A DNA stretch of 64,000 nt from an uncultured Solirubrobacterales bacterium (GTDB lineage: Bacteria; Actinomycetota; Thermoleophilia; Solirubrobacterales; 70-9), in contig CAVTPZ010000017.1 in assembly GCA_963736685.1 (NCBI GenBank), positions 9,607 through 73,606 of the forward strand. The letters are read 5' to 3'. The notes under the pieces are model-generated. The model worked only from the letters and a program-made list of their open reading frames with translations, was not told the origin of the DNA and made no database searches. How positions within the stretch are numbered: position 1 is the first letter of the stretch; every line of letters begins with the position of its first letter. The translations under genes and the position numbers were made by a program. Of the stretch, positions 14,426 to 41,371 are shown piece after piece.

Positions 14426-14452
14426 TCCGCCGGTTACGCGAGACTCACGGAT

Positions 14453-14881: not shown

Positions 14882-14942
14882 TGGCACGAACTCCACGCGA
14901 GTACCATGTGATTTCACCTAGTTGTTGGCCTAGGGGGAACGC

Positions 14943-15323: not shown

Positions 15324-15327
15324 CCTG

Positions 15328-17170: not shown

Positions 17171-17173
17171 CCG

Positions 17174-17893: not shown

Positions 17894-17942
17894 CCAATAC
17901 GTACAACATCCACCAGACTTCCTCAATTTGCGGAAATCGGCC

Positions 17943-17972
17943 TTGACGTGTGTCCGCTTCCGCACATAGGGT
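17943..17972 (+). promoter_or_regulatory. Candidate sigma-70-type promoter for the permease gene
   Basis: TTGACG (17943-17948), an 18-nt spacer, then TAGGGT (17967-17972, fitting TANNNT). It lies in a lower-GC intergenic region. Confidence 0.3.
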
Positions 17973-18042
17973 CCACACCATTCCGGCATATATGGCCACG
18001 CCCGCAAGGATGTGGGCGGGCCGCGACGGAGGGAGAAGAGCA

Positions 18043-19623: not shown

Positions 19624-19641
19624 GAAAGGCGAGTGGAAACG

Positions 19642-19746
19642 ATGAACGAATCGAACAAGTCCGTCGGCGAGAAGGACCTGACGGTGGCAATCGGGATCCT
19701 CGGCTTGATCGCCTTGGCTTCGATCATCATTGAGATCGTCAGCTGA
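19642..19746 (+). CDS. Possible 34-aa single-TM peptide
   Basis: Sequence is MNESNKSVGEKDLTVAIGILGLIALASIIIEIVS. It lies 18 nt after the permease stop and is followed by hairpins. There is no homology support. Confidence 0.35.
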   Translation: MNESNKSVGEKDLTVAIGILGLIALASIIIEIVS

Positions 19747-19770
19747 CGCTCGACAGTAGCTGCGCGGTCG

Positions 19771-19792
19771 CCCACGCCCAACGGGGCGTGGG
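19771..19792 (+). terminator. Hairpin 1 (9-bp stem)
   Basis: CCCACGCCC, loop AACG, GGGCGTGGG. Confidence 0.45.
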
Positions 19793-19804
19793 GTATGCGC
19801 CGCC

Positions 19805-19835
19805 CACTCGACCCGCGATTAGCGCGGGTCGAGTG
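19805..19835 (+). terminator. Hairpin 2 (13-bp perfect stem)
   Basis: CACTCGACCCGCG, loop ATTAG, CGCGGGTCGAGTG. There is no U-tract. Confidence 0.5.
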
Positions 19836-20007
19836 CTATCTGGGGTCGCGTCACCGGTGACGGCTGGTCGGGCCAAGCCCCGGGCGGCGTAGAGATTTCG
19901 CTAGATCGCAGATGCAAAGCCGAAAACGGGCGCTGGGGGCACTACTGTGGGTCGCGGTGTGCCGGGAAGGCTGGTCGGCAATTCGTCGTCGACCCCCAAG
20001 GAGCGCA

Positions 20008-25966: not shown

Positions 25967-26012
25967 CGGACGAACTCTGCCGCATGAGCTGTGCCTACGA
26001 TGGTGCCGCACC

Positions 26013-28151
26013 GTGAGCGAGCCCGATCCCAGGCACAGGCATCCTCTGCACGAGGCCTCGCACAGGGTCGGCGTCAAGACGCCTCCAGGATCACCCGAGG
26101 ACGACGACGGCAAGGTCCGCACGGGCCATAAGCCCGGAGCGAAGCGGACCTTCAACGAGGCGGCGCACAAGCTCGGCTACTGGCGGCCGGAGACCCTCTC
26201 CGAGAAGGACGAGGAGTCTGAGGCGGTTCGCAAGCGCTTCGAGGCGCTGAAGGACAACCAACGGGACGTGGTCGCCGACGCCGGCAAGGCTGTGCTCGCG
26301 CTCGGCGCGCTCGGCGTCGTCTACGGGGACATCGGCACCAGCCCGCTCTACACCGAGCAGGTGATCTTCACGACCCACAAAGCCGCCGCTCAGGCCACAA
26401 CAGCGGGCGTCTACGGGGTCGTCTCGCTGATCTTCTGGGCGCTGACGATCGTCGTCTCGATCAAGTACGCGGGCTTCATCATGCGGGCCCACAACCGCGG
26501 TGACGGCGGGATCATGGCTCTCGCCTCGCTGCTCCAGCGCAACCGGGTCGCGCGCAGGGCGACCCTCGTGACACTCGGGATCTTCGGGGCCGCTCTCTTC
26601 TTCGGCGACGGGATCATCACGCCCGCGATCTCGGTCCTCGGCTCGGTTCAAGGCCTGAAGGTGATCGAACCGGACCTGGCCCACCTCGTGGTGCCGATAT
26701 CGGTCGTGATCCTGCTCGGCCTCTTCTTCCTTCAGCGGCGCGGGTCGGGCACCATCGGATGGCTGTTCGGCCCGGTGATCCTGGTTTGGTTCGTCGTGAT
26801 CGGGCTCCTGGGGCTGAGCCAAGTGGTGAAGGACCCCGCGGTCTTTCAAGCGCTCTCACCCACGTGGGGGGCACGGTTCCTCCTCGACCACGGCGTGGCG
26901 GGATTCCTCACGCTCGGCGGCGTCGTGCTCGCCGTCACCGGCGCCGAGGCTCTCTATGCGGACCGCGGTCATTTCGGCGCCGCGCCGATCCGCCTCGGCT
27001 GGTTCGCGGTGGCGCTTCCCGCGCTGGTCCTCAACTATCTCGGGCAGGGCGTGGCGATCCACGACGACCCGAGCAAGGCGTCAAATCCCTTCTTCCTGAT
27101 GGCGCCGCACTGGGCTCTCTATCCCCTGCTGATCCTGGCGACCGCCGCAACGATCATCGCCTCCCAGGCGGCAATCGCCGGTTCGTTCTCGGTCGCCCGG
27201 CAGGCGGTCCAGCTGGGCTTCCTGCCCCGGCTCACCATCCGGCATCCATCCACGATGGAGGGGCAGATCTACGTCCCGATCGTCAACTGGGCGCTCTGCA
27301 TCGGGGTGATCGCACTGACCCTGATCTTCCAGTCCGCCGACAAGCTCGGCGATATCTACGGAGTGGCGGTCACCGGCACGTTCGTCCTCAACACGCTGCT
27401 CTTCCTGGCGGTGGCTCGCTTCCTCTGGGGTACTCCGAAGCGGAGGCTCGTCCCGATCGCAGTGCTGTTCCTGACGGTCGAGGTGTCTTTCTTTGCCGCC
27501 AACATCGCCAAGGTCGAGCACGGCGCCTGGCTGCCGCTCGTGGTGGCGGCCGTGGTCTCGGTGGTGATGATCAACTGGCGCCGCGGGCAGACGATCGTCA
27601 GCCGCGAGCGAACCGCCAGAGAGGGAAGCCTGACGGAGTTCCTCAGCGGCCTCGACGCACACGAGGACCCCCTGATCAACATCGTCCCCGGCGTGTCGGT
27701 CTATCTTCACCCGACCAAGGAGACGACCCCGCTCGCGCTCAGGATCGAGACGGAGCACTCCCGGACCTTCCCGAAGCGCGTCGTGATCGTCTCCGTCGAC
27801 CTGGTCAGCATCCCCAACGTGGACGAGTTCGAGCGCTTCACGGTCGAGCAGATCGGCGGCCCCTTCAGGGTCTTCCACGTGACGATCAGGGCCGGCTATC
27901 ACGACAAGGTCGATGTACCGGCGGCGCTGCGCCTCTGCCGCAAGCAGGGCCTGCTCGAGCGCAACCTGGACCTCGAGCACGCCTCGTACCACGTCTCGCG
28001 GATCGCGATCAAGCCGACCGACGACTCTCCGCTGAACAACTGGCGCAAGAGGCTGTTCGTGGTGATGGCCCGCAACGCGGCGAGCCCGATCGAGGCCTTC
28101 CACCTACCGAGCGAGGACACGGTCTACGTCGGCGAGCAGATCCCGGTCTAG
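26013..28151 (+). CDS. kup: KUP/HAK/KT potassium transporter
   Basis: Signature GVVYGDIGTSPLY, 12 TM segments and a cytoplasmic C-domain. The start is uncertain. GTG 26013 is the first in-frame start after the divergent gene, and GC3 supports coding from about 26090. Confidence 0.9.
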   Translation: MSEPDPRHRHPLHEASHRVGVKTPPGSPEDDDGKVRTGHKPGAKRTFNEAAHKLGYWRPETLSEKDEESEAVRKRFEALKDNQRDVVADAGKAVLALGALGVVYGDIGTSPLYTEQVIFTTHKAAAQATTAGVYGVVSLIFWALTIVVSIKYAGFIMRAHNRGDGGIMALASLLQRNRVARRATLVTLGIFGAALFFGDGIITPAISVLGSVQGLKVIEPDLAHLVVPISVVILLGLFFLQRRGSGTIGWLFGPVILVWFVVIGLLGLSQVVKDPAVFQALSPTWGARFLLDHGVAGFLTLGGVVLAVTGAEALYADRGHFGAAPIRLGWFAVALPALVLNYLGQGVAIHDDPSKASNPFFLMAPHWALYPLLILATAATIIASQAAIAGSFSVARQAVQLGFLPRLTIRHPSTMEGQIYVPIVNWALCIGVIALTLIFQSADKLGDIYGVAVTGTFVLNTLLFLAVARFLWGTPKRRLVPIAVLFLTVEVSFFAANIAKVEHGAWLPLVVAAVVSVVMINWRRGQTIVSRERTAREGSLTEFLSGLDAHEDPLINIVPGVSVYLHPTKETTPLALRIETEHSRTFPKRVVIVSVDLVSIPNVDEFERFTVEQIGGPFRVFHVTIRAGYHDKVDVPAALRLCRKQGLLERNLDLEHASYHVSRIAIKPTDDSPLNNWRKRLFVVMARNAASPIEAFHLPSEDTVYVGEQIPV

Positions 28152-28160
28152 GTCCCCGCT

Positions 28161-29129
28161 TCACCCGTGGGTCAGGTGAACGGCGACGAAGGCGAGGTAG
28201 AGGGAGACGAGCAGGGCGCCGTCCAGACGGTGGGCCCCGCTCGGCCTAGCGAGCACGAGGAGGGTGACAATCGTCATCCCGGTGAACCAGGCGAGGTCGA
28301 ACCTGACCAGGCCCGTCGCCCCACCGAGCCCGACCAGCAGTGCCGGAAGCATCACCCCTCCGGCGAGGTTGATCGTGTTGGAGTTGAGCGTCTCGCTGAC
28401 CAGAGCGGTCCCGCGATCGCTCGCCCCGAGCCGGATCGCGGTGAAAGCGTTCGGCAGGCTGGTCAGAACCGCGAGAATCAGGACGCCGACCACGACGGGC
28501 GAGACATCCCACTGGCCCGCGAGGGAGAGCGCCGTCCGCACCATGCCCTCAGCGCCGAGCACGATCCAGACGATGCAGAGCCCGATCAGGACGATCGCCT
28601 CACGCACCGCCTGAGGCGGTGGATCCGGGATCGCGGCGATCGCGAAGGCGCGTGCCCTCGCCTCTGCCGGGCTCGTGTGAAGGCGGCCTCGCCCGAGCAG
28701 CACCACGTACGGAACCGCCACCATCATGAAGGCGAGCACCGCCAGCCAGGCCGGGATCAGGTCCAGGATCAGTCCGCCGGCGATCAGCGCCGCCAGCAGC
28801 GCCACAGCACCCTCGACCGCGAGCGAGCGCCGTGTCAGGTGAACGGCGCCCGCGAGCAAAGCGCTCATGCCGATCATCGCCGCCAGGTTGAAGACGTTCG
28901 AGCCAAGGACGACCCCCATGCTCACGCTCTTCTCCCCCGCACTCAGGGCGATAAGCGCCGAGGCGATCTCGGGGGCATCGGCCGCGAGGGCGGTGAGCAG
29001 GCCGACGAGCGGCTCGGACAGGCCCAGCTCGGGCCCGACGTGGTCGAGCCTGTCCGCGAAGAGAGCCGCCGCGCCGAGGCAGACGGCCGCCGAGGCACAG
29101 AAGAGCGGAATGGCAAGCGCGGGGCTGAT
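28161..29129 (-). CDS. CaCA-family cation/Ca2+ exchanger (YrbG-like)
   Basis: The alpha-2 repeat (GVLILAVLTSLPNAFTAI) is present. GSNVFNL and the alpha-1 repeat (GLLTALAADAPEIASALIAL) are in the same frame upstream of the first ATG (28925). The frame is open to 29153, but there is no ATG/GTG/TTG upstream of 28931. Confidence 0.75.
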   Translation of the reverse strand: MSPALAIPLFCASAAVCLGAAALFADRLDHVGPELGLSEPLVGLLTALAADAPEIASALIALSAGEKSVSMGVVLGSNVFNLAAMIGMSALLAGAVHLTRRSLAVEGAVALLAALIAGGLILDLIPAWLAVLAFMMVAVPYVVLLGRGRLHTSPAEARARAFAIAAIPDPPPQAVREAIVLIGLCIVWIVLGAEGMVRTALSLAGQWDVSPVVVGVLILAVLTSLPNAFTAIRLGASDRGTALVSETLNSNTINLAGGVMLPALLVGLGGATGLVRFDLAWFTGMTIVTLLVLARPSGAHRLDGALLVSLYLAFVAVHLTHG

Positions 29130-29227: not shown

Positions 29228-29941
29228 ATGCCTCGCCCCCTGATCGGAGTCTGCGCCGCTGTCGAGAACGCCCACTTCGGGGCCTGGAAGGACGAGCCGG
29301 CCGTCCTCCTGCCCCTCTCCTACTCGAGAGCGATTCACGGCGCCGGCGGGATGGTGGCCATGCTCCCTCCGGACCGCCGGGCCACCGAGGATCCCTCGGA
29401 GCTGCTCGACCACCTGGACGCGCTGGTGCTCGGCGGCGGCTCGGACATCGATCCCGGAAGCCACGGCGCCGAGCCGCACGAGGAGACGGTCGGGACGAAC
29501 CCGGACCGGGACCGCTTCGAGATCGCCCTGGCCCAGGCCGCCCTGGAGCGGGGGATTCCCCTGCTCGGCATCTGCCGCGGGATGCAGGTCCTCAACGTCG
29601 CCTGCGGCGGGACCCTCGACCAGCATCTGCCCGACCGTCTGGGTCACGAGCGCCACCGTCCCATCCCGGGATCCTGGACGGAGCACGACGTCCGGATCGA
29701 GCCCGGGTCGCTCGCCGCCCGAGCCGCCGGTTCCGAGCAGCTCACCGTAAAGAGCCATCACCACCAGGGTGTTGACGCCGTTCCCGACTCGCTCTCCGCG
29801 ACCGCCTGGGCGACGGACGACGAGAGCGTCGAGGCGATCGAATCAGACGACGGGGGCTTCGTCCTCGGCGTGCTCTGGCATCCGGAAGAGGACCCGTCGG
29901 ACTCGGTGATTCCGGCGCTGATCGCGCGCGCGGCCGGCTAG
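29228..29941 (+). CDS. Gamma-glutamyl-GABA hydrolase-like class I amidotransferase (peptidase C26, PuuD-like)
   Basis: Motifs GICRGMQVLNVACGG and LGVLWHPE. Confidence 0.85.
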   Translation: MPRPLIGVCAAVENAHFGAWKDEPAVLLPLSYSRAIHGAGGMVAMLPPDRRATEDPSELLDHLDALVLGGGSDIDPGSHGAEPHEETVGTNPDRDRFEIALAQAALERGIPLLGICRGMQVLNVACGGTLDQHLPDRLGHERHRPIPGSWTEHDVRIEPGSLAARAAGSEQLTVKSHHHQGVDAVPDSLSATAWATDDESVEAIESDDGGFVLGVLWHPEEDPSDSVIPALIARAAG

Positions 29942-30466
29942 CTTCGACCGCTTCACGGTCGGGCGCAGGATCAGGATCTCCCCGGGGGCATTCTCGAGCA
30001 TCCAGGCGACGTCGTCGGCTGTGAAGCCGTCCCCGTTGGTGGCGCCCGCCGCCACGATCTGATCGAAGCGCTCGTGTTCCATCAGCATGCGCAGCGCGTG
30101 CCGGACGGTCCTCCCGGGCTCGATCCGAGAGTCGACCGGAACGCCCTGGCTCGCGGCGCGCTGCTCGATCGCCTCGAGCAGCGGCAGGGCCGCTTCGGCC
30201 TGCTTCTTCAGCGGGGTGTCGAGCTGGACACTGAGGGGGACGATGGCCAGGTAGGCCGGGACCAGTGTCGCCCCCTCCGCACGGGCCAACCGCAGGGCCG
30301 CGTCGAAGGCTGGCGTCGAGAGCGCCTGCCCTACGAAGGGGAAGAGGATGCGCTTGGGAGCTGGGGTGATCGCAGCGTCGGTCCGGCGGCGCTTGAGCTC
30401 ACGCACCAGCAGGTAGCCGGTGGAGACGACGAGGGCGGCAATCACCACGATCTCGATCGGGCTCAC
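29843..30466 (-). CDS. Membrane-anchored universal stress protein (Usp) domain protein
   Basis: The GTG at 30466 overlaps the stop of the upstream gene (GTGA). It has an N-terminal TM and a Usp-like fold. The last ~33 codons overlap the convergent gene, so they may not be genuine. Confidence 0.65.
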   Translation of the reverse strand: MSPIEIVVIAALVVSTGYLLVRELKRRRTDAAITPAPKRILFPFVGQALSTPAFDAALRLARAEGATLVPAYLAIVPLSVQLDTPLKKQAEAALPLLEAIEQRAASQGVPVDSRIEPGRTVRHALRMLMEHERFDQIVAAGATNGDGFTADDVAWMLENAPGEILILRPTVKRSKLAGRARDQRRNHRVRRVLFRMPEHAEDEAPVV

Positions 30467-31629
30467 GCCTCCCCCTCCTCAGCGCGCAGGGTGCGATCCG
30501 CCACGACCCGGAGGTCGACTCCCGGCAGGAACTCGAGCAGCCGGGTGGGAAGCCCGGGGCGGAAGCGTTCGAATCCGGTTCTCGGGCTCGGGGTGCCGAT
30601 CAGAACGTAGGTCGTGCCCTTCTCCTCGGCGACCTCCTTGACCGTCTGTGCGATGTCGTCGCCCTCCTCGATGATCAGGTGAGCGCCGAGAACGGCTGCA
30701 AGGCGACCGATCGCATCGAGCTGGTTCTGCTCCTCGGCGCTCGGCTTGTGGCCGGGCCGTTTGACCCAGAGGAGATCCAGATCGGCGCCGAGCCGCTGGG
30801 CGGAGCGCCAGGCCCGCCTCACCAGTCGCTGGGCTCTCGGGGTCGGCTTGATCAGTGCGAGCAGCCGCTCGCCGACGGCCTGCGCCGAGGCGCTGTCCGC
30901 GAGACGGTCCTCGCGCCGGCCGACGGGCTCCTTGACCATCCGCTTCGCCTCGACATCCTCAGCGACCTCGCGCAGCGCCACCTCGCGAAGGGCGGCGAGA
31001 TTCTCGATGCGAAAGAAGTTGTTGAGCGCCGAGTCGATCCGCTCGGAGGGATAGATCTTGCCGGCGCGCAGCCGGGCCAGCAGCGCCTCCGGCGTCAGGT
31101 CCATCAGCACGACCTCGTCGGCTGACGCGAGGACCGCGTCGGGAAGCGTCTCCCGTACACGGACACCAGTCAGCTCGCAGACGCTGTCGTTGAGGCTCTC
31201 GAGGTGCTGCACGTTGACCGTCGAGTAAACGTCGATCCCGGAGGCGAGCACGTCAGCGACGTCCTCGTAGCGCTTCTCGTGCTCGAGGCCGGGCGCGTTG
31301 GTGTGCGCCAATTCGTCGATCAGCGCCAGGTCGGGCGCGCGCTCGATGACGGCGGGAAGGTCCATCTCCTCGAGATCCGTGTCGCGGTAAGTGACATGCC
31401 GGCGCGGAACGAATTCGAGACCGTCCGCCTGGTCGACCGTCTCCTGGCGTCCGTGTGGCTCCAGATAGCCGATGACCACGTCCCGCCCGGAGTCCGCCTC
31501 GGCGCGCCCCTCCTGCAGCATTCGATAGGTCTTTCCGACACCGGCGGCCATACCCAGGAAGACCTTGAGGCTGCCACGGTCCACCTCGGCGCTGCCGCGC
31601 TCGCGACTCTCTTCGGTGGGCTCGGCCAT
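30463..31629 (-). CDS. kdpD: Stand-alone KdpD N-terminal sensor domain plus Usp domain (no TM or kinase part)
   Basis: Has the KdpD N-domain Walker-A-like motif GMAAGVGKTYRML, plus LIDELAHTN and NVQHLESLND. The C-terminal half is Usp-like. ATG 31629 is 3 nt after the upstream stop (the alternative start is TTG 31638). Confidence 0.85.
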   Translation of the reverse strand: MAEPTEESRERGSAEVDRGSLKVFLGMAAGVGKTYRMLQEGRAEADSGRDVVIGYLEPHGRQETVDQADGLEFVPRRHVTYRDTDLEEMDLPAVIERAPDLALIDELAHTNAPGLEHEKRYEDVADVLASGIDVYSTVNVQHLESLNDSVCELTGVRVRETLPDAVLASADEVVLMDLTPEALLARLRAGKIYPSERIDSALNNFFRIENLAALREVALREVAEDVEAKRMVKEPVGRREDRLADSASAQAVGERLLALIKPTPRAQRLVRRAWRSAQRLGADLDLLWVKRPGHKPSAEEQNQLDAIGRLAAVLGAHLIIEEGDDIAQTVKEVAEEKGTTYVLIGTPSPRTGFERFRPGLPTRLLEFLPGVDLRVVADRTLRAEEGEA

Positions 31630-31631
31630 CG

Positions 31632-32129
31632 TCACCAAGTTTCCTCCCGTCCCTCCATGGCGTCGAGGATGTCCTCCGCCTCGTGGGCGAGGTGACTGCC
31701 GATCTTCGGGTCAAACAGGACGCTGTTGGGGTGTGTGAGCAGCAGGTGCACCCGTGCCACGCCCCGGGGGCTGACGGCCCTGTCCGACTCGAGCATCGAG
31801 GCGACCCATGTGAGCGGGACCCGCGCCGCCACCAAGCCGTTCCGGTTCGGCGTCACGGCGGCGCTCGGGCCGCGGCTGACCTCGTCCCGGTTGAGCAGGT
31901 GCCTGATGGCACCGGCCAGGCGGCGCCGTGACTCGGGACTCGTCAGCCAGGCGGAGCGCTGCGCGAGTGAGGGGGACAACGCGGGGTCGGCGCCATCGCT
32001 GAGGGCCTGGTCGAAGGTGGCGCCGTTCAGGTGGGCCCAGAGACGGACGCGGATCCCGGCCCTGCGAGGGCTCGGGATCCGTGGCCGGCTGTCGGCGACG
32101 AAGCCTGTTCCGGTGAGCTGCTCGGCCAT
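31632..32129 (-). CDS. Uncharacterised small protein, paralog family member 2 (inside the kdp operon)
   Basis: The ATG at 32129 is 1 nt after the kdpB stop, and its stop is 3 nt before the kdpD-N ATG. It shares conserved blocks with 14453..14881 and 36757..37200. Confidence 0.65.
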   Translation of the reverse strand: MAEQLTGTGFVADSRPRIPSPRRAGIRVRLWAHLNGATFDQALSDGADPALSPSLAQRSAWLTSPESRRRLAGAIRHLLNRDEVSRGPSAAVTPNRNGLVAARVPLTWVASMLESDRAVSPRGVARVHLLLTHPNSVLFDPKIGSHLAHEAEDILDAMEGREETW

Positions 32130-32130
32130 C

Positions 32131-34200
32131 TCACGCCCCGAACAGACCGTGGACGATCAGGTCGATCAGCTTGATCCCGATGAAGGGCGCGATGATGCCG
32201 CCGAGGCCGTAGATGAAGAGGTTGCGCCGCAGGAGGGCGGACGCGCCCGAAGGCCGATAGCGGACGCCGCGCAGTGCCAGCGGGATCAGCAGCGGGATCA
32301 CCAGCGCGTTGAAGATGATCGCCGAGATGATCGCCGACTCGGGCGTACCCAGATCCATGATGTTGAGCTTGTTGAGGGGCCCGTCTCCACCCGCTGACGT
32401 CGCATAGGTGGCGGCGAAGATCGCCGGCAGGATGGCGAAGTACTTCGCCACGTCGTTCGCGATCGAGAACGTGGTGAGGGCGCCGCGGGTGATCAGCAGC
32501 TGCTTTCCGACCTCGACGATCTCGATGAGCTTCGTCGGGTTCGAATCGAGGTCGACCATGTTCCCCGCCTCGCGTGCCGCCTGAGTTCCCGTGTTCATGG
32601 TCACGCCGACGTCGGCCTGCGCCAGCGCCGGGGCGTCGTTCGTCCCGTCGCCGGTCATCGCGATCATCCGTCCCCCCGCCTGCTGCTCCTTGATCAGGTC
32701 GAGCTTCTTCTCCGGAGTGGCCTCAGCCAGGAAGTCGTCGACGCCGGACTCGTCGGCGATCTTGGCGGCCGTCAGCTTGTTGTCGCCGGTGATCATCACC
32801 GTGCGAATGCCCATCGCCCTCAGCTGATCGAAGCGATGGCGCATGCCGTCCTTGACGACGTCCTTCAGGTAGATGACACCGAGGACCTGGCTGTCCTGCG
32901 CCACCGCGAGCGGCGTACCGCCCTCTCGACCGATCCGGTCGAGCTGCTCCTGCAGCGCCGGCGGAGCCGTGCCGCCCTCCGCCTTGACGAAGTCGATGAT
33001 CGCGTCGCCCGCGCCCTTGCGCAGGCGCTGCCCGTTGACGTCCACGCCGCTCATCCGGGTCTCGGCGCTGAACGGGACGAAGTTCGCCTTGTGTGAGGAC
33101 ATCTCGTGCTCGCGGATTCCGTACTTCTTCGCGAGCACGACGATCGAGCGGCCCTCGGGGGTCTCGTCGGCCAGCGACGACATCTGCGCCGCCTCCGCCA
33201 GGTCTGCCTCGGCCACCCCCGGCATCGGGACGAACTCGGTGGCCTCGCGGTTGCCGAGCGTGATCGTGCCCGTCTTGTCGAGGAGAAGGACGTCGACATC
33301 GCCCGAGGCCTCCACTGCACGCCCGGAAAGGGCCAGCACGTTCCGCCGGACGAGGCGATCCATGCCCGCAATCCCGATCGCGGAGAGCAGGGCACCGATC
33401 GTGGTCGGAATCAGGGCGACGAGCAGGGCGATCAGGGTCGCAACGGAGGCAGCCGTGCTCGAGAACTCCGCCATCGGCCGCAGCACGACGACGACCGCCA
33501 GGAAGACGATGGTCAGACCCGAGAGCAGGATGTTGAGGGCGATCTCGTTCGGCGTCTTGCGCCGTTCGGCGCCCTCGACTAGCGCGATCATGCGGTCGAG
33601 GAAGCTCTTGCCGGGCTCCTGGGTGATCTCGACCACGATCCGGTCCGAGAGCACCTTTGTGCCGCCGGTGACCGCACTGCGGTCGCCGCCCGCCTCGCGG
33701 ATCACGGGAGCCGACTCGCCGGTGATCGCGGACTCGTCGACCGAGGCGATGCCCTCGATCACGGTGCCGTCGCCCGGGATCACCTCCCCGGCCTGGATCA
33801 CCACCAGGTCGCCCTTCTGCAGCTCCGAGGCGGTCACCTCGCGGCCGTCCTTCAGGTGGGCAACGGTCTCGGTGCGCGCGGCGCGGAGGGCGTCGGCCTG
33901 GGCCTTGCCGCGGCCCTCGGCGAGCGCCTCGGCAAGGTTCGCGAAGACCACGGTCAGCCAGAGCCAGAACGCCACCGTGAAGGTGAACCAGGCCGGCTCG
34001 TCGCCGCCGCCCAGCGGGCCATTGCCGAACGCCTGGTTGATCCAGCCGATCGTGGTGATGACGGCGCCGACCTCGACCACGAACATCACCGGGTTGTGGA
34101 TCTGGTGGCGCGGGCTGAGCTTCTTGACGCTCGACCAGATCGCCGGGAGCACCAGCTCACGGTCGAACATGGATACACGTCGGCGGTTGTTCTCGGTCAC
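32131..34200 (-). CDS. kdpB: K+-transporting P-type ATPase subunit B
   Basis: Motifs DKTGTIT, TGDN and [10 protein letters not shown]. The GTG overlaps the kdpC stop (GTGA). Confidence 0.97.
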
Positions 34201-34844
34201 TGCGGGGACTCCTTATCGAGGGCGATGTTGAGCTCGAGCACGTTCACCCCGGGCTCGCCGAGGACGCCGAGAGCGCGTCCGTCGGTGTTGTCGTCGATCA
34301 GCTGGTTCACCCGGTCAAGCGGGATGCCGCGCACCTTCGAGATCCGGCGAGCCTGGATCCGGGCGTTGGCCTGGGAGATGTCGGGGTCGACGCCTGACGC
34401 CGAGGAGGTGATCGCGTCGACGGGGATGTCTCGCCGGGTCAGTCCCGAGTCGTAGGGCCGCTCCAGCGCGAGGTACTTGCGGATGTAGCCCTTGAACTCC
34501 TGCATCAGCTCCCGGTTGTTCGGCCCTAGGTTGTTGAAGAAGGCTGTATCGGCGCTGTAGGTCGTGACCGACGGGCGCGGCTGGAAGTACTTCGGGTCGG
34601 GCGTCTTGATCTGCTTCTTGCCGAACTTGCCGCGCTGGGCGGCCGGAATCGGATGCCGGATCGTGAAGCTCTGGCCGATCAGCTTGGACCCGACGGTCCT
34701 GCCGTCGACCTTCACCTGGCTGCCATCCGACCCGTTCGGGAAGAGCACCTGCGAGACACCCGTCGCGATCAGCGGGTAGGCCACGCCGAAGAGCAGCGTG
34801 AAGGCCACCACGGCGATGATCGAGGCTGTCAGGTCGCGTCTCAT
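34197..34844 (-). CDS. kdpC: K+-transporting ATPase subunit C
   Basis: N-terminal TM, then [16 protein letters not shown] and [11 protein letters not shown]. The ATG at 34844 is 1 nt after the kdpA stop. Confidence 0.93.
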
Positions 34845-34845
34845 C

Positions 34846-36603
34846 TCAGAAGAGCTGGTTGGTGAGGCCCTGGACGACCGGTCCAAGCAGGAGGGCGGGG
34901 AAGAAAGTCAGAGCCGCGACGATCACGATCACCGCGAGCAGCAGGATCACGAAGGTGGGGTTGTCGGTTCGGAAGGTGCCGGGTCCGGCGGGCACCACGC
35001 GCTTCATCGAGAGCGAACCGGCGACGGCCAAAGCCGAGAGCAGGGGAACGAAGCGGGCCATCAGCATCGAAAGCCCGCCGAGGATGTCTGCGAAGGTGAT
35101 CCCATAGGCACCGACGTTGCCCGGGGCGTTCGGCTGTACGAAGCCGGTGTAGCCGGCGAACGCGGAGCCGTTGTTGTTCGCCTGGGAGGTGTAGGCGTAG
35201 AGCGTCTCCGAGAATCCCTGCGGACCCGGATTGAAGATCGAAGGCGCCCCGTACTTGCTCGAGATCGCGATCCCGGTTGCAATCAGGGCCACCATCGGCG
35301 TGAACAGCAGCCCGATCAGCACCAGCTTCATCTCCCGGGACTCCACCTTCTTGCCCAGGTACTCGGGGGTTCTTCCCACCATCAGGCCGGCTATGAAGAC
35401 CGCCAGGAGAACCGTCAAGAGCATCCCGTACAGCCCCGAGCCGACCCCGCCGAAGATCACCTCCCCGGTCATCATGTTGGTGAGCGGCACGAGGCCGCCG
35501 ATGCCGGTGAGGGAGTCGTGGGCGCCGTTGACGGAGCCGTTGGAGGCGTCCGTCGTGAAGTTCGCCCACTCGGCGGTTGCCGTGATCCCGTTGCGCTGCT
35601 CCTTGCCCTCGAGGTTGCCGCCGGTCGTGCCATCCGCTGCGGCGGTGTTCTCGCCTGCGACGTGCTGCGCGGGGGATCCGTTCTGCTCGGCGGCGTAGGC
35701 GACGCCGAACAGGCTGATGGCGAAGACGACCATCGTCGCGTACAGGGCCCAGCCCTGGCGGCGGTTGCCCACCATGCGGCCGAACTGAGCCGTGGCGGCG
35801 GCGGGAATCAGGAGGATGAAGATCATCTCGACGAAACCCGAGAACTGCGTCGGGTTCTCGAACGGGAAGGAGCTGTTGAGGTTGAAGAACCCGCCTCCGT
35901 TGGTTCCCAGCTGCTTGATCGCGATCTGCGAGGCGGCGGGTCCCATCGGCAGGGTCTGGTCGAGGCCGCCGAGCCCGTGGATCGTCACGTAGCCGCCGAG
36001 CGACTGGACCACGCCCTGGGAGACGAGGATCAGGGTTCCGATCACCGACAGGGGAAGCAGGATGTAGAGCAGCGTGCGGGTGACGTCTCGCCAGAAGTTG
36101 CCGAGCTCCCTGACGCCGCGGCTGGCGAAGCCACGGATGACAGCGGCGAGGACGGCCATGCCGACCGCCGCCGAGACGAAGTTCTGGACGGCCAGGCCGG
36201 CCATCTGCGAGAAGTACGTCATCGTCGTCTCGCCGCCGTAGTACTGCCAGTTGGTGTTGGTGATGAACGACGAGGTCGTGTTGAAGGTCACGTCCCAGGG
36301 GGCGGAACGGAATCCCTCGGGGTTCCACGGGTGGATGTTCTGCGTGCGGAGGATCAGATAGAGGACGAGAAAGAAGACGAAGGAGAAGATCACCGTCGTC
36401 TTGCCGTATGCCTTCCAGTCCTGCTCCGTGCGAGCCGAGGGTCCCAGCACGCGGTAGATCAGCCGCTCGAGCCAGCCGAGCGGCCGCTCGAGGAAGAGGC
36501 GCTCGCCCTGGTAGACCCGCGCCATGTATCCGCCCAGGAGCGGCACCAGCGCGGTGAGAACCGCGACGTAGATCGCCAGCTGCAGCCAGCCGTTGACGGT
36601 CAC
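34846..36603 (-). CDS. kdpA: K+-transporting ATPase subunit A
   Basis: 585-aa polytopic protein with KdpA selectivity-filter-like repeats (TNTNWQYYGGE, QLGTNGGGFFN). The GTG overlaps the kdpF stop. Confidence 0.96.
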   Translation of the reverse strand: MTVNGWLQLAIYVAVLTALVPLLGGYMARVYQGERLFLERPLGWLERLIYRVLGPSARTEQDWKAYGKTTVIFSFVFFLVLYLILRTQNIHPWNPEGFRSAPWDVTFNTTSSFITNTNWQYYGGETTMTYFSQMAGLAVQNFVSAAVGMAVLAAVIRGFASRGVRELGNFWRDVTRTLLYILLPLSVIGTLILVSQGVVQSLGGYVTIHGLGGLDQTLPMGPAASQIAIKQLGTNGGGFFNLNSSFPFENPTQFSGFVEMIFILLIPAAATAQFGRMVGNRRQGWALYATMVVFAISLFGVAYAAEQNGSPAQHVAGENTAAADGTTGGNLEGKEQRNGITATAEWANFTTDASNGSVNGAHDSLTGIGGLVPLTNMMTGEVIFGGVGSGLYGMLLTVLLAVFIAGLMVGRTPEYLGKKVESREMKLVLIGLLFTPMVALIATGIAISSKYGAPSIFNPGPQGFSETLYAYTSQANNNGSAFAGYTGFVQPNAPGNVGAYGITFADILGGLSMLMARFVPLLSALAVAGSLSMKRVVPAGPGTFRTDNPTFVILLLAVIVIVAALTFFPALLLGPVVQGLTNQLF

Positions 36604-36668
36604 AGGTTCTCGCCCCGGAGCAGCGAGTAGAGGAGGTAGAAGAACAGGAGGATCGAGACGACCAGCAT
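36600..36668 (-). CDS. kdpF: KdpF small subunit (22 aa)
   Basis: Hand-translated as MLVVSILLFFYLLYSLLRGENL. Its stop TGA overlaps the kdpA GTG. Confidence 0.75.
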   Translation of the reverse strand: MLVVSILLFFYLLYSLLRGENL

Positions 36669-36685
36669 TGAGCCCTCCGCGAAGC

Positions 36686-36766
36686 TCATATGCGGTCCAG
36701 CCCGTCGATCAGGAAATAGAGCGCGGCGAAGACCACGACCGCGATTGCGATGGAGATCAGATCCAT
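36686..36766 (-). CDS. Second KdpF-like hydrophobic peptide (26 aa)
   Basis: Hand-translated as MDLISIAIAVVVFAALYFLIDGLDRI. It lies 17 nt upstream of kdpF, and its ATG overlaps the end of the upstream ORF. Confidence 0.4.
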   Translation of the reverse strand: MDLISIAIAVVVFAALYFLIDGLDRI

Positions 36767-37200
36767 GGGTCGGAGGATCGCCGCGCCGCCGTCAAGCCGG
36801 CATGGGGCTTTGCCGGTTGCACATCAAGATTTCGTGAAGCCACCCCGGTGGGCAGCGAGTCCGTGGCGCGCAGGGCCTCGCCGGCGACCTCGGCGAGCCT
36901 GGCTGCGCCTCCCACTCCCCACAGCGGGCCGTCACATTCCGTGATCATCAGCAGCGCCTTCGCCACACCCCCGGGGGCGATCGGCCCGGGCGCCATCAGC
37001 CGCTCAACCAGCCGGTCGAGCTCGACTCCCGAGCCGGGCGGGGAGAGCTCCTCGAGCGACAACGCGAGGCGGCGCCGGTCCTCCAGGTCAACGAGTTCGG
37101 CGGCCCGCACGGCGAGCAGGGGGTCAAGGCTCGGGTCGGCTCCCGCCGCCAGCCGGCGGTCGAGCGTTCGCCTATGGAGCCATGCCCGTACGCGATTCAC
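36757..37200 (-). CDS. Uncharacterised small protein, paralog family member 3 (between kdpE and kdpF)
   Basis: ORF 36757..37200. It shares the LDxxLxxGxDP...LAxRxxxL...RRRLA block and the PxGV...D.P.W block with the other two paralogs. The C-terminal ~35 aa may be read-through. Confidence 0.6.
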   Translation of the reverse strand: MNRVRAWLHRRTLDRRLAAGADPSLDPLLAVRAAELVDLEDRRRLALSLEELSPPGSGVELDRLVERLMAPGPIAPGGVAKALLMITECDGPLWGVGGAARLAEVAGEALRATDSLPTGVASRNLDVQPAKPHAGLTAARRSSDPWI

Positions 37201-37278
37201 ATGGCCATGCTGGGGGCCATCGCATGATCAGAACGCAAAGATCCGAGGGACCTGGATCAAGATCGTGTGAAGGGGTGG

Positions 37279-37953
37279 TCAGGCCCCGAACCGATACCCG
37301 ACGCCGGGATCGGTGCGTATGTAGCGAGGGCCGTCAGACGGTTCGATCTTGCGCCGCAGGTTCGCGATATGCGTACGGAGCGTCTGGGTGTCCTCCTCCC
37401 AGCCCGGGCCCCAGACCTCGGTGAGCAGCGCCCTGTGGGTCATCAGCCGGCCGCGGTTGCGCGCCAGCGTGCCGAGCAGCCGGAACTCGATCGGCGTCAG
37501 ATGCACCTCCTCCCCGTCGCGTTTCACGGTGTGACCGGCCAGGTCGATCTCCAGGCCGTCCGCGCTGAGCGCGGGCTCCTCGGCGGCCTCGCCCGCACGG
37601 CGAAGGGCCGCGTTCAGCCTGGCGACCAGCTCCCTGGGGCCGAACGGCTTGGTCACGTAGTCGTCGGCGCCAGCCTCGAGCGCGCGGACTTTCTGCTCCT
37701 CCTCTCCGACGGCGGAGAGGACGAGAATCGGCATCTCGCTCCAGGAGCGGATGCTGCGTGTGACCTCGACGCCGTCGCCGTCGGGCAGGATCAGGTCGAT
37801 GATCGCGGCGTCGGGAGGCTTCACGGACGCGGCATCGAGCGCCTCTGTCGCATCGGCGGTCTCGACCACCTCGAAGCCGGCGTCCTTGAGGACGACCCGG
37901 AGCGCCCGCCGGATCTGCATCTCGTCATCGCAGACCAGAATGCGCTGCGTCAT
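37279..37953 (-). CDS. kdpE: KdpE-type OmpR-family response regulator
   Basis: Receiver plus winged helix. It overlaps the upstream kinase gene by 4 nt and lies in the kdp context. Confidence 0.9.
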   Translation of the reverse strand: MTQRILVCDDEMQIRRALRVVLKDAGFEVVETADATEALDAASVKPPDAAIIDLILPDGDGVEVTRSIRSWSEMPILVLSAVGEEEQKVRALEAGADDYVTKPFGPRELVARLNAALRRAGEAAEEPALSADGLEIDLAGHTVKRDGEEVHLTPIEFRLLGTLARNRGRLMTHRALLTEVWGPGWEEDTQTLRTHIANLRRKIEPSDGPRYIRTDPGVGYRFGA

Positions 37954-39386
37954 CGCGCGGGGGCCGGCGCGACCGGCTCAGCACGCTCATCCGACCTCGG
38001 GCTGTCCAGCGGGAACTCCACGACGAACGTGGTCCCCTGCCCGGGCAGCGACTCGACCGAGACGCGTCCTCCGTTCGCTTCCACGAACCCCTTGACGATC
38101 GCGAGGCCAAGGCCCGCGCCCGTGTGCGAAGGATCGTTGGAGCCTCGGTAGAAGGCCTCGAAGATGCGGTCGAGATCGCGGTCGGCGATCCCAGGCCCCC
38201 GATCCACGACCCGGATCACGAGGCGGCCGGAGACCTCCCGGGCTCGAACAGAGACCCGCTCGCCCCCCGAGTAGCGGGCGGCATTCGAGAGGAGATTGAC
38301 GAACACGCGCTCCAGCTGGGCGGCGTCGGCCCGGATGAACGGCAGCTGCTGGTCGATGGAGAGCTGGAAGCGATCGCGATCGATCTCGAGATCGTTGATC
38401 GCCACTTCGACGACCTCCTCGATCGACGTCCAGTCGGTCGAGGGCTCCGCGGTGCCCGTGCGCAGCCGCGACAGGTCGAGCAGGTTGTCGACAAGGTCTC
38501 CCAGTCGATCCGCATCGTCGATGATCGCCTCGCGCAGGTCCGCTCTGTCCTTTTCGTCGATCGTCGGCGACGTGAGCGCCTCGGCGGCCGCCCGGATCGC
38601 CGTGATTGGCGTACGCAGGTCATGGGAGACCGTGCGCAGCAGCGCGGTCTTGATCTCGTCGCTGCGACGCAGGGCCTCGGTCTCGACCGTCGCACTCATC
38701 AGCGACTCGCGGTCGATCGCCGCGACCAGCAGGGCCTCGAGTCCGGGCACCAGCCGCTGCTGGAGGCGATCCAAGTTGCCACGGTCGATGCCAAGCGGGA
38801 CGACCAGCGTGCCCAGGCGCCGTCCCTGGTGACGGAGCGGCAGCTCGAGGCGCGCAGGGTGATCCACGGCTTCACCGAGCTGGAGCGCCGCAGAGGGGAG
38901 CTCGAGCGCCGTGGCAATGCGCTCGGCGGCGACCGGTAGCGCCGCCATCAGGCTCGGACCGCCGAGCAGGGTTCGCGCCAGCTCCGCCATCAGGTCCGCC
39001 TCACGCCGTCTTGCCTCCGCCTCCTGAGTGCGGCTGCGGGCCAGCTCCGAGAGCGTGCTCGCCATAGCCGCGGTGACGAAGAATGCGGCGAGCGCGACCC
39101 AGTTCCGCGAGTCGGCGATCGTGAACCGCCCGGTCGGCGGCAGGTGGAAGAAGTTGAACGCAGCTGCGCTGAGGAGCGCGGTCAGCATTCCCCACCTGAA
39201 GCCCCAGAAGATCGAGACGCCGAGCACCGCCAGCAGGTAGACGACCCCGAGGGAGACCGCGGGGGCGATCTGCCTGAGCGGATAGATCGCGAGCGTGCAC
39301 AGAGCCACCGACGCGACGGCGACGATCAGTCCCAGGGTCCGTGAGCGAGGCGGCTCGCGGAGCAGGAGCGGTGTGCTCAGCTCCAT
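37950..39386 (-). CDS. kdpD: KdpD C-terminal-type membrane histidine kinase (DUF4118 TM bundle, GAF-like, HisKA, HATPase), lacking the KdpD N-domain
   Basis: ATG at 39386 (MELSTPLLL). Four TM segments are typical of the KdpD core. H-box is VSHDLRTPI and G-box is GAGLGLAIV. Confidence 0.88.
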   Translation of the reverse strand: MELSTPLLLREPPRSRTLGLIVAVASVALCTLAIYPLRQIAPAVSLGVVYLLAVLGVSIFWGFRWGMLTALLSAAAFNFFHLPPTGRFTIADSRNWVALAAFFVTAAMASTLSELARSRTQEAEARRREADLMAELARTLLGGPSLMAALPVAAERIATALELPSAALQLGEAVDHPARLELPLRHQGRRLGTLVVPLGIDRGNLDRLQQRLVPGLEALLVAAIDRESLMSATVETEALRRSDEIKTALLRTVSHDLRTPITAIRAAAEALTSPTIDEKDRADLREAIIDDADRLGDLVDNLLDLSRLRTGTAEPSTDWTSIEEVVEVAINDLEIDRDRFQLSIDQQLPFIRADAAQLERVFVNLLSNAARYSGGERVSVRAREVSGRLVIRVVDRGPGIADRDLDRIFEAFYRGSNDPSHTGAGLGLAIVKGFVEANGGRVSVESLPGQGTTFVVEFPLDSPRSDERAEPVAPAPAR

Positions 39387-39463
39387 CTCGAGAGCAGGGT
39401 ACGACGCTCGGCGCACCGGCAGCGGGCACGCTTGCCCGCGCACGTATATTCGAAGCGGCTGCA

Positions 39464-41371
39464 ATGGCTCGACGGATTCCAAGGGACGAATCGCTGGCGC
39501 GAGTCCACGGGGTGGGCGCGCTCTTCTCGGCGGCCTACGGCAACGTGGGCAGCTCGATCTACTACGCACTCGGCGTCACGGCGGCCTTCGCGCTCGGCCT
39601 GACGCCGGTCGCCTTCGTGATCGCCGGCCTGATCTTCATGGCCACCGCCGCCACCTACGCCGAGGCGACCGTGATGTTCCCCGAGGCCGGCGGCTCGGCG
39701 AGCTTCGCGCGGCATGCCTTCAACGAGCTGGTCAGCTTCTTCGCGGGGTGGGGCCAGATGCTCAACTACATCATCACGGTCGCCATCTCGGCCTTCTTCG
39801 TCCCGCACTACCTGGCGGTGTTCTGGCCGTGGCTCGGGAACTCGCCGGGAGACATCCTCGGCGGCGTCGCGGTGATCGTCTTCCTCGCCGCGCTCAACGT
39901 GAAGGGGACCCAGGAGTCGACGCGGCTCAACCTCGTCCTCGCCGTCGTCGACCTCTGCACCCAGGCCATTCTGGTCGTGATCGGGATGGTGCTCGTCTTC
40001 AGCCCCAGCGTCCTGGTGGACAACGTCCACCTCGGCGTTGCGCCGAGCTGGGGCGACTTCCTGCTCGGGATCGCCGTCGGCATGATCGCCTACACCGGGA
40101 TCGAGACGATCTCCAACATGTCCGAAGAGGCGAAGGACGCCTCCAAGACGATCCCGAAGGGCGTCGGGCTGACTGTCCTGGCCGTCCTCGGCCTCTACGC
40201 GCTGTTGCCGCTGATCGCGCTCTCGGCGATGCCCGTTCATCACGTCGCCGGCCACTACACGACGGATCTGGGCACCAAGTTCGCCGACGACCCGGTGCTC
40301 GGCATTGTCGAGAACCTCGGGCTGAGCTCCGGCCTGACCGACATCCTCCGCTACTACGTCGGGGTGCTCGCCGCGGTCATCCTGCTGATCGCCACGAACG
40401 CCGGACTGATCGGGGTCTCACGACTCACCTTCTCGATGGGCCACTATCGTCAGCTCCCCGAGCGGCTCAGGCAGGTTCACCCCAAGTATCGGACGCCCTA
40501 CGTGGCGATCCTGGTCTTCTCGGCGATCGCGATCATCACCCTGATCCCCGGTGAGACCAAGCTGCTGGCGACGCTCTACTCGTTCGGCGCGATGCTCTCC
40601 TTCACGATCGCCCACATCTCGGTGATCAGGCTGCGCCAGCGCTTTCCGGACCAAGAGCGCGATTGGAAGCCTCCCGGGAGCATCCGTGCCTTTGGCTTCG
40701 ACCTCCCGCTGACCGCCGCCTTCGGCGGGTTCGGGACATTCGCCGCCTGGATCGTCGTGCTGGCCCTCAACCCGCGCACCCTCGTGATCGGCACCGCGTG
40801 GATGCTCCTCGGGATCTCGATCTACCTGCTCTACCGCCGCTCGCAGGGGCTCTCCCCCGTGCAGACCCACAAGGTCGTACTGCCGGAGCCCCTCGGGGTC
40901 GAGGAGGTCGAGTACAAGAGCGTCCTGGTCGCCTTCGAAGAGGACGAGCCGTTCTCGGAACAGACGATGGTCACCGCGGTCAAGCTGGCCTCCAAGAAGC
41001 GCCGCGCAATCCATGTGATCTCGGTCGTCATCGTGCCCAGCCACCTGCCGCTCGACGCCTCGCTGACCGAGCAGGAGGAGGCGGCCCGCTCGAAGATCGA
41101 GCAGGCGAAGCTGATCGGCGGCATGCGCGTCAGCGGGCACGTCCACCGGGCGCGGCCGAACCAGGCGGGCCACTCGATCGCCGAGGAGGCGCGCGAGCTG
41201 AAGGCAAGCGCCCTCGTCATGGGCCTGCGCTACCGCAACGGGGCGCCGCTCTACGGCAAGACGCTGCAGACCGTGCTCGCGGAGCGTCCCTGCCGGGTGA
41301 TCGTGGTCGGCGAGCCGGAGTTGGCCAGGGAGGCGGCCGGGCTCAGCGGACCGGTCGGAGCTTCGGCCTAG
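39464..41371 (+). CDS. APC-family amino acid/polyamine permease with a C-terminal Usp domain
   Basis: ATG at 39464 (MARRIPRDE). It has 12 TM segments and a ~150-aa Usp-like C-terminus (YKSVLVAFEEDE...ASALVMG...RVIVV). Confidence 0.85.
   Translation: MARRIPRDESLARVHGVGALFSAAYGNVGSSIYYALGVTAAFALGLTPVAFVIAGLIFMATAATYAEATVMFPEAGGSASFARHAFNELVSFFAGWGQMLNYIITVAISAFFVPHYLAVFWPWLGNSPGDILGGVAVIVFLAALNVKGTQESTRLNLVLAVVDLCTQAILVVIGMVLVFSPSVLVDNVHLGVAPSWGDFLLGIAVGMIAYTGIETISNMSEEAKDASKTIPKGVGLTVLAVLGLYALLPLIALSAMPVHHVAGHYTTDLGTKFADDPVLGIVENLGLSSGLTDILRYYVGVLAAVILLIATNAGLIGVSRLTFSMGHYRQLPERLRQVHPKYRTPYVAILVFSAIAIITLIPGETKLLATLYSFGAMLSFTIAHISVIRLRQRFPDQERDWKPPGSIRAFGFDLPLTAAFGGFGTFAAWIVVLALNPRTLVIGTAWMLLGISIYLLYRRSQGLSPVQTHKVVLPEPLGVEEVEYKSVLVAFEEDEPFSEQTMVTAVKLASKKRRAIHVISVVIVPSHLPLDASLTEQEEAARSKIEQAKLIGGMRVSGHVHRARPNQAGHSIAEEARELKASALVMGLRYRNGAPLYGKTLQTVLAERPCRVIVVGEPELAREAAGLSGPVGASA

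Follow-up and report, generated by a model that had tools for sequence, protein, structure and literature searches.

Members of an unannotated all-helical protein family in split-KdpD kdp operons of Solirubrobacterales: candidate accessory regulators of Kdp signalling

Among K+ pumps, Kdp is the textbook example of an inducible one, and KdpD/KdpE serves as a model of two-component systems. The subject of the present work is a kdp gene cluster on the minus strand of a 64-kb stretch of DNA from an uncultured Solirubrobacterales bacterium (the window, by which the whole stretch of 64,000 nucleotides is meant), and in particular two small open reading frames (ORFs) lying within it, A165 and B147, of 165 and 147 amino acids (aa). 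In transcription order, the cluster comprises the gene of a membrane histidine kinase (HK), kdpE, B147, two small peptides, kdpA, kdpC, kdpB, A165, a gene for a stand-alone protein with a KdpD N-terminal domain and a Usp domain (kdpD-N) and a Usp-like gene; judged by its domain assignments, it is a split-KdpD system. A165 and B147 are, with high probability, genuine Kdp-linked accessory members of a large protein family. That the kdp-linked genes of this family act as accessory regulators of Kdp signalling is a reading to which even chances are given, while the specific mechanism of signalling modulation outlined below is put forward tentatively, with somewhat less than even confidence. The new part is the unannotated accessory family; Kdp with a split KdpD is itself a known system (PMC11018627).

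The homology of the two ORFs, which an earlier note on this DNA had proposed from two shared sequence blocks, is borne out by BLASTP (32% identity over 133 columns, E=6e-12, in an alignment that holds both blocks) and by a common family profile. A hidden Markov model (HMM) built from 49 diverse relatives and searched against the six-frame translation of the window matched exactly three ORFs: A165 (E=4e-49), B147 (E=6e-32) and C142 (E=1.8e-42), the B147 match being split by an internal gap into profile positions 26-83 and 109-173. C142 resembles A165 with E=9e-10 and B147 with E=1e-6. Block 1, LDxxLxxGxxPxxSxxLxxRxxxLxxxxxRxxLA, with its invariant Asp, Gly and two Arg, is present in the three proteins, as is a second block similar to V.PRGVAxxxxLLTDGxSPLY; the invariant or near-invariant columns are D40, L43, G46, R58, L62, R68 and A72 in A165 numbering. 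Thus, the third paralog that had been claimed for the window does exist, but outside the kdp cluster. A tblastn match at 13265-13453 (minus strand) was rejected as third paralog, being spurious and antisense to a GGDEF-EAL gene; the true paralog is C142.

Both ORFs also behave as genes. Their GC content by codon position (0.70/0.55/0.89 for A165 and 0.79/0.56/0.80 for B147) resembles that of the neighbouring kdp genes, and comparison with orthologs gives ratios of non-synonymous to synonymous substitution rates (dN/dS) of 0.24-0.71 (A165) and 0.34 (B147), against 0.05-0.14 for KdpD-N, KdpE and KdpB over the same genome pairs. These values point to real protein-coding genes under purifying selection with clearly relaxed constraint; on sequence evidence, then, A165 and B147 are genuine homologous protein-coding genes.

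The position of A165 in the operon is highly conserved. A word-based search retrieved only 10 close homologs, 43-91% identical and all of ~165 aa, and when 185,579 GTDB species representatives were scanned with a pair of peptide patterns specific for A165, orthologs were located at 13 loci, all of them in metagenome-assembled genomes of Solirubrobacterales (Actinomycetota, Thermoleophilia). The ortholog is placed between kdpB and kdpD-N in 13/13 of these loci and also in L001-L004 (related and metagenomic loci are cited here by L numbers). Across these loci identity is 39-61% in A165, while values of 80-96% prevail in the Kdp proteins encoded on either side. The orthogroup is recognised by a length of ~165 aa, by its place between kdpB and kdpD-N, by a 3' end carrying the Shine-Dalgarno sequence and start of the next gene, and by the protein tail EGREETW, all of which were found.

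At nucleotide level, the kdpB stop (32131-32133) is followed by the A165 ATG at 32129, with the 1-nt spacing noticed earlier, whereas the 3-nt spacing reported for the downstream junction has to be corrected: the A165 stop (TGA, 31634-31632) lies 2 nt from a kdpD-N ATG at 31629, or else overlaps by 4 nt (GTGA) with a GTG at 31635. The last A165 codons, GGA CGG GAG GAA ACT TGG TGA, together with CGATGGCC, make up an element that holds both the Shine-Dalgarno sequence GGGAGGAA and the kdpD-N start (GTG/ATG). In 10/14 loci GGACGGGAGGAAACTTGGTGACGATGGCC is unchanged, synonymous sites included, and the other four depart from it by 1-4 bases; the synonymous rate (dS) elsewhere in the A165 gene is 0.7-1.0. 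Because the synonymous sites are invariant and coincide with the kdpD-N ribosome-binding site and start, the nucleotide invariance of EGREETW is best read as a translational-coupling element, and A165 as translationally coupled to kdpD-N. As both signals lie inside the last codons of A165, A165 and KdpD-N/Usp should be co-produced. With its 1-nt distance from kdpB, A165 would be coupled in translation to its upstream neighbour as well. The idea that EGREETW is a docking peptide is weakened by the same extension of conservation to synonymous sites and coincidence with the kdpD-N signals, and EGREETW may serve as a cautionary case, in which an 'invariant C-terminal peptide' was a conserved ribosome-binding site.

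Some further observations concern the history of this junction. Both A165 (32121-32133) and kdpD-N (31627-31634) begin with TGA-N(1-2)-ATGGCCGAG, and in metagenomic operons that have no gene between kdpB and kdpD-N (L023, L027) kdpB abuts kdpD-N; the A165 junction looks like one duplicated upon insertion of the family gene. In addition, the window and L004 are ~99.9% identical apart from the tract 30000-34000 (kdpB-A165-kdpD-N), which is 3.5-5% diverged, and in the comparison of the window with L009 A165 is 45% and KdpD-N 96% identical. The L004 tract and these discordant identities suggest recombination within the kdp operon. The alternative that A165 is hypervariable between near-identical strains was rejected, since the whole 30000-34000 tract is diverged and A165 is merely less constrained as a protein.

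B147 occupies a second position, between kdpE and the KdpF-like peptides, as had been described; this position is kept in L003 and recurs in metagenomic loci. Among 17 Solirubrobacterales loci, a B147-type gene was found only in the window, in its near-identical relative L004 and in L003, where the ortholog is an uncalled ORF of 51-57% identity in the arrangement kdpE-X-kdpF-kdpA. B147 is 41% identical to another family member, P0154, versus 33% to A165, and this greater closeness to other members indicates that it did not arise from A165 by recent duplication within the operon; of the duplication proposed earlier, the paralogy stands, but not the copying of one gene from the other in recent times. 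B147 ends in a stop codon that overlaps with the start (ATG) of the first KdpF-like peptide. The codons of its residues 117-147 fall within a copy of the kdp promoter/leader, whereas the L003 ortholog stops ahead of the box described below. The last ~30 codons of B147 are read-through of the duplicated promoter/leader, which is consistent with the low confidence of this tail in the structural model.

The box in question is a direct repeat. In loci without B147 the ~75-nt kdpE-kdpF spacer starts with CTTCAC-N5-CTTGAT, a pattern with two matches in the window, one between kdpE and B147 and one within the 3' tail of B147, against 0.16 expected. In 893 kb of related and metagenomic loci it was matched 26 times, and 20/26 of these boxes have, within 400 nt downstream on the same strand, kdpF-kdpA (10 cases, ~220 nt upstream of kdpA), a family gene (8) or kdpE (2). 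The other six boxes, too, are mostly located in kdp loci, but at a greater distance from the closest recognised gene. In Mycobacterium smegmatis, the KdpE site mapped by footprinting is CCGTAAAGAAACCATCAAGGCC (PMC5401905). Its reverse complement, CTTGAT-N5-CTTTAC, is the same CTTNAY direct repeat with an 11-bp period as the window box. By resemblance and position, the box is inferred to be a candidate KdpE operator and B147 a candidate KdpE-regulated gene. Being preceded by its own copy of this likely operator, B147 is probably induced under K+ limitation. As a separate observation, the spacer between kdpE and kdpF is a hot spot for insertions: in L010 (1904-4247) two operator copies enclose a 124-aa ORF and a truncated second kdpA, and in L016 (4046-4300) a small membrane ORF occupies this spacer.

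The family to which these proteins belong is large. When 1.84 billion cluster representatives (clusters at 50% identity) were searched with a family profile, 4,138 clusters matched at E<=1e-3, of which 2,460 also at E<=1e-10; most are 135-185 aa long, and a few represent tandem duplications. The sampled members are all named 'hypothetical protein' and come mostly from metagenomes. None of the three window paralogs matched a family in Pfam-A, NCBIfam, PHROGs or PADLOC, and the 49 diverse members gave against the same libraries a sole match, of one member to DUF4350, at the chance level of E=0.0068. Domain fusions were sought in long family ORFs and long representatives and none was seen; tblastn of one family member against 72,556 plasmids gave no match, and a literature search found no paper on this family, nor on Kdp in Solirubrobacterales. 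The earlier impression of an accessory type without known Kdp counterpart therefore agrees with these searches, in which no curated family or known Kdp accessory protein was matched.

As regards structure, the AlphaFold2 (AF2) model of A165 has a mean predicted local distance difference test (pLDDT) score of 79, a predicted template-modelling score (pTM) of 0.71 and eight helices, and in it residues 1-25 and 84-89 are disordered; that of B147 is all-helical (pLDDT 84.7, pTM 0.76), residues 1-113 forming a folded core (pLDDT >90) that is followed by a tail at ~57. A known fold was to be accepted at a Foldseek E<=0.001 or a template-modelling (TM) score of ~0.5 or more. The family profile found nothing among PDB sequences (best E=1.1); Foldseek searches of the AF2 models against PDB gave best E values of 1.9 (A165) and 5.8 (B147), and one model searched against BFVD a best E=3.4, TM being <=0.27 in these searches. 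Neither Usp (PF00582) nor the KdpD N-terminal domain (PF02702) matched A165 or B147, the models being all-helical and not alpha/beta. Since no hydrophobic segment was found (maximum 19-residue Kyte-Doolittle scores of 0.77 for A165 and 1.35 for B147, with negative grand average of hydropathy, GRAVY), both proteins are taken to be soluble; with no KdpF-type transmembrane helix predicted in either, they are not pump subunits. As far as these predictions go, this is a large soluble all-alpha family without curated annotation or recognisable fold, and a name-worthy domain for databases.

The link of the family with kdp extends beyond A165 and B147. A degenerate DNA pattern for the motif LL(T/R)DGxxPLY selected 120 metagenomic loci, 105 of them encoding a family member, and kdp genes are present in 30/105. 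Of the family genes, 22/110 have a kdp gene as immediate neighbour on the same strand, or 10/39 when at least 800 nt are available on both sides. The position kdpE-X-(kdpF)-kdpA is occupied in L023, L036, L039, L044 (two copies), L111, L118, L123, L139 and others, and the position kdpB-X-kdpD-N in L076, L082, L093 and L130; in L104 a family gene follows kdpB directly at the contig end. In the three operons that can be read from kdpA to kdpD-N (L023, L027, L066), kdpD-N is a gene of its own and the pump genes are ordered A-C-B, an order that L104 shows as well up to its contig end. Members are, by this comparison of gene layouts, repeatedly built into split-KdpD kdp operons of Thermoleophilia-like actinobacteria, with the layout HK-kdpE / kdpF'-F-A-C-B-kdpD-N/Usp-usp. 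Thus homologs do occur in related genomes and are kdp-linked, both in the 13 GTDB representatives and in the metagenomic loci, contrary to what would have refuted the earlier interpretation. The description as a lineage-specific Kdp-associated factor holds for the A165 orthogroup, restricted to Solirubrobacterales, but not for the family of ~4,100 clusters, which is only partly kdp-linked. It may be added that L044, L073 and L123 carry two or three family genes around kdpE, with two genes in tandem between kdpE and kdpA and a further one in divergent orientation.

A mechanism can be proposed against the background of recent work on KdpD. In 2024 the N-terminal domain of KdpD was shown to be an atypical serine kinase, which phosphorylates the serine of the KdpB TGES motif and so turns the pump off, in E. 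coli and Deinococcus geothermalis (PMC11018627). A short KdpD/Usp form without the K+-sensing transmembrane and GAF domains responds to cyclic di-AMP (c-di-AMP) in D. geothermalis, and K+ sensing by the stand-alone KdpD-N/Usp forms was left partly open (PMC11018627). The window KdpD-N keeps the G-x5-GKT motif, and the window KdpB keeps TGES. K+ limitation would induce B147 together with the pump, A165 would likewise be co-expressed with the pump and made stoichiometrically with the KdpD-N/Usp kinase, and both would work through contacts with other proteins, as accessory regulators ('connectors') of Kdp signalling; this mode of action is suggested by the fact that they are soluble helical proteins without a catalytic signature. 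The likeliest role would be to tune the stand-alone KdpD-N/Usp module, the kinase switching KdpB off, and A165, made with the kinase and encoded between the gene of the kinase and that of its substrate, is a plausible modulator of KdpB phosphorylation. The membrane HK/KdpE pair would be an alternative target, and B147, as a KdpE-induced copy beside kdpE, could plausibly be a feedback element. A more far-reaching version, in which the family would be a Kdp signalling adaptor class specific to split KdpD, with A165 gating the phosphorylation of KdpB by KdpD-N/Usp, the kdpE-kdpF members feeding back on HK/KdpE and both together supplying the K+ or second-messenger input missing from the short KdpD forms, is considered doubtful.

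Several points weigh against a regulatory role in Kdp signalling. A165 evolves 3-5 times faster than its neighbours, which fits poorly with the idea that it and KdpD-N form a tight complex and co-evolve; of the distinct Solirubrobacterales lineages sampled, only 2/~12 have B147; the operator assignment draws on resemblance and position, and the mechanism on gene position only. Moreover, ~70% of the sampled family loci are not beside kdp genes, and the function of the family may be more general than Kdp control.

The last point leads to the alternative that survives best, although it is thought unlikely: a general stress-response or regulatory family with no Kdp-specific activity, some copies of which would have come to be controlled by KdpE or be carried along in the kdp operon, K+/osmotic stress being just one among several conditions that call for the protein. 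It would account for the many loci without kdp genes, for the several paralogs per genome and for the neighbours of the non-kdp members (n=69), among which are ABATE/zf-CGNR 'stress-induced regulators' (14, mostly divergent), APC permeases (7) and kup directly downstream (1). C142, with at least 146 homologs, would also fit, lying directly downstream of a GAF-GGDEF-EAL gene just as its orthologs P0025 and P0131 do; another member, P0129, adjoins mraZ. What such a family would not explain is that two different subfamilies sit at two precise positions of the kdp operon, that A165 is exactly coupled to kdpD-N and the operator duplicated at B147, and that the kdp-linked fraction, 20-29%, is far above chance for one ~8-kb operon per genome.

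These other contexts have features of their own. The divergent pairing with ABATE/zf-CGNR and the APC permease flank (e.g. L026, L029, L034, L067, L108, L125) form a second conserved context of the family; as to the idea that the APC permeases beside family genes are K+ importers of the KimA type, KimA is one among many equal APC matches. The C142 block of the window (12791-21414, plus strand) comprises the genes for GAF-GGDEF-EAL, C142, a cNMP/CBS/DUF294 nucleotidyltransferase, RNase_T and two APC permeases, and is met again in L018 and L021, followed there by a cation-efflux gene and kup.

A second alternative, regarded as quite improbable, is that A165 and B147 sense a small molecule or an ion (c-di-AMP, c-di-GMP or K+, for instance) and so provide the input for the stand-alone KdpD-N/Usp kinase and the short HK. 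The short KdpD/Usp form, devoid of the K+-sensing transmembrane and GAF domains, needs an outside signal (PMC11018627), C142 is conserved beside the gene of a c-di-GMP enzyme, and the family has an invariant Asp/Arg/Arg/Gly set (D40, R58, R68 and G123 in A165). Nevertheless, no similarity to a known nucleotide- or ion-binding fold or motif was found in PDB, Foldseek or the library scans, and the Usp domain is already a documented c-di-AMP receptor.

Still less credit is given to the possibility that B147 is a decaying, non-functional insertion, i.e. a truncated family gene in the kdp promoter region. In its favour, B147 lacks ~25 central residues of the profile, runs into the promoter copy with a low-confidence tail, is confined to the few lineages named above and has at third codon positions a GC content below that of its neighbours. 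Yet the L003 ortholog (57% identity at the dN/dS given above) has the same internal gap, B147 contains no frameshifts or stops and its core is modelled with high confidence, and intact family genes fill the same position in many metagenomic operons. Finally, that the ORFs are chance open frames, of which the window, with ~69% GC, has many long and spurious ones, or extra membrane subunits of the pump, for which KdpF-type subunits are a precedent, is contradicted by thousands of homologs, purifying selection, conserved length and position and the lack of a transmembrane segment, and can be practically discarded.

With accessory regulation of Kdp signalling as the preferred reading, a family of ~4,000 clusters wired into split-KdpD operons would offer concrete candidate regulators, testable by existing Kdp assays. 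The features on which the above is based are collected in Table 1.

Table 1. Features of the kdp cluster and the third family paralog (window coordinates)
Feature	Position	Strand	Basis or remark
HK, C-terminal half of split KdpD (membrane histidine kinase)	37950-39569	-	Pfam DUF4118-HisKA-HATPase
kdpE, OmpR-type response regulator	37279-37953	-	Pfam Response_reg + Trans_reg_C
Candidate operator, copy 1, CTTCACACGATCTTGA, direct repeat CTTCAC-N5-CTTGA	37257-37272	-	Directly 3' of kdpE stop, 56 nt upstream of B147 GTG
B147, 147-aa ORF	36757-37200	-	Family domain at residues 1-114 (36859-37200)
Candidate operator, copy 2, CTTCACGAAATCTTGA	36824-36839	-	Within 3' tail of B147, 57 nt upstream of ATG of first KdpF-like peptide
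Small hydrophobic peptide, 26 aa, MDLISIAIAVVVFAALYFLIDGLDRI	36686-36766	-	Precedes KdpF-like peptide
KdpF-like hydrophobic peptide, 29 aa	36600-36689	-	29-aa product of L003: weak Potass_KdpF match
kdpA	34846-36603	-	Pfam and translation
kdpC	34197-34886	-	Pfam and translation
kdpB	32131-34200	-	Pfam and translation; TGES motif kept
A165, 165-aa family member	31632-32129	-	Between kdpB and kdpD-N/Usp gene
Putative coupling element: last A165 codons and kdpD-N Shine-Dalgarno sequence/start	31621-31655	-	Nucleotide-level invariance
Stand-alone KdpD-N + Usp protein, other half of split KdpD	30463-31638	-	Pfam KdpD (E=2.3e-92) and Usp; Walker A G-x5-GKT (GMAAGVGKT)
Usp-like protein, 207 aa, last gene of cluster	29843-30466	-	Weak Pfam Usp match; kept in all loci
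C142, third family paralog	14453-14881	+	Directly downstream of GAF-GGDEF-EAL gene (12791-14425)

With regard to the remaining genes, the longest ORF of the HK is probably over-extended at its 5' end, relatives being called at 478-497 aa. The canonical order of the pump genes is kdpFABC; in the window and in every related locus spanning these genes (L001-L017, L023, L027, L066, L104) it is kdpF'-kdpF-kdpA-kdpC-kdpB. Both small peptide genes are kept in all loci; the 26-aa peptide, whose sequence is conserved in all Solirubrobacterales loci examined, is perhaps a further small subunit of the pump. A conserved GCGATCCTCC (36767-36790, minus strand) immediately precedes the ATG of the first small peptide in all loci; it resembles the complement of a Shine-Dalgarno sequence, at the spot where a ribosome-binding site is expected. 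An Rfam scan of the whole window gave no match, and hence no c-di-AMP riboswitch was recognised in the kdp leader.

The kdp neighbourhood is rich in cation-homeostasis genes, as a Kup-type K+ transporter (25773-28151, plus strand) and a Na/Ca-exchanger family protein (28161-28925, minus strand) are both encoded less than 2 kb from the cluster. On its other side, an AA_permease-Usp gene (39341-41371, plus strand) is divergent from the kdp histidine kinase, and in L094 (363-2677) an operator-like box, a family gene and a homologous AA_permease-Usp gene follow one another on the same strand; this permease may belong to the K+ regulon, and it resembles KimA no more closely than it does other APC transporters.

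Known Kdp systems offer several partial parallels. The short KdpD of D. geothermalis, KdpQ of Halobacterium and the truncated KdpD of cyanobacteria are encoded by accessory regulatory genes at the 3' end of kdp, like the gene downstream of A165; these stand-alone KdpD-N/Usp proteins carry KdpD and Usp domains, whereas A165 and B147 have neither. KdpF is likewise a small product encoded beside kdpA, but it is a single transmembrane helix of ~29 aa, while A165 and B147 are predicted to be soluble helical domains of 115-165 aa. Among the small connectors acting on KdpD, PtsN, a protein of the phosphotransferase system (PTS), is also counted. Further small proteins with an effect on KdpD are UspC of E. 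coli and LprF/LprJ of M. tuberculosis (PMC11018627, PMC5401905). All these are small, lineage-restricted modulators of KdpD/KdpE that work by direct contact, the class proposed for A165 and B147, which nevertheless match none of them (a Usp fold in UspC, lipoproteins in LprF/LprJ, a PTS protein in PtsN) and, unlike them, are encoded inside the kdp operon.

In Clostridium acetobutylicum, Treuner-Lange and co-workers are said to have described in 1997 an extra ORF, kdpX, that is co-transcribed with the pump genes under K+ limitation. The operon, named kdpZYABCXDE (PMC5401905), differs from that of the window in belonging to another phylum, in its fused KdpD and in its A-B-C order. Nevertheless, kdpX shares with A165 the character of a lineage-specific extra ORF between the pump genes and kdpD, and, likened by position only, appears as the closest positional analogue of A165.

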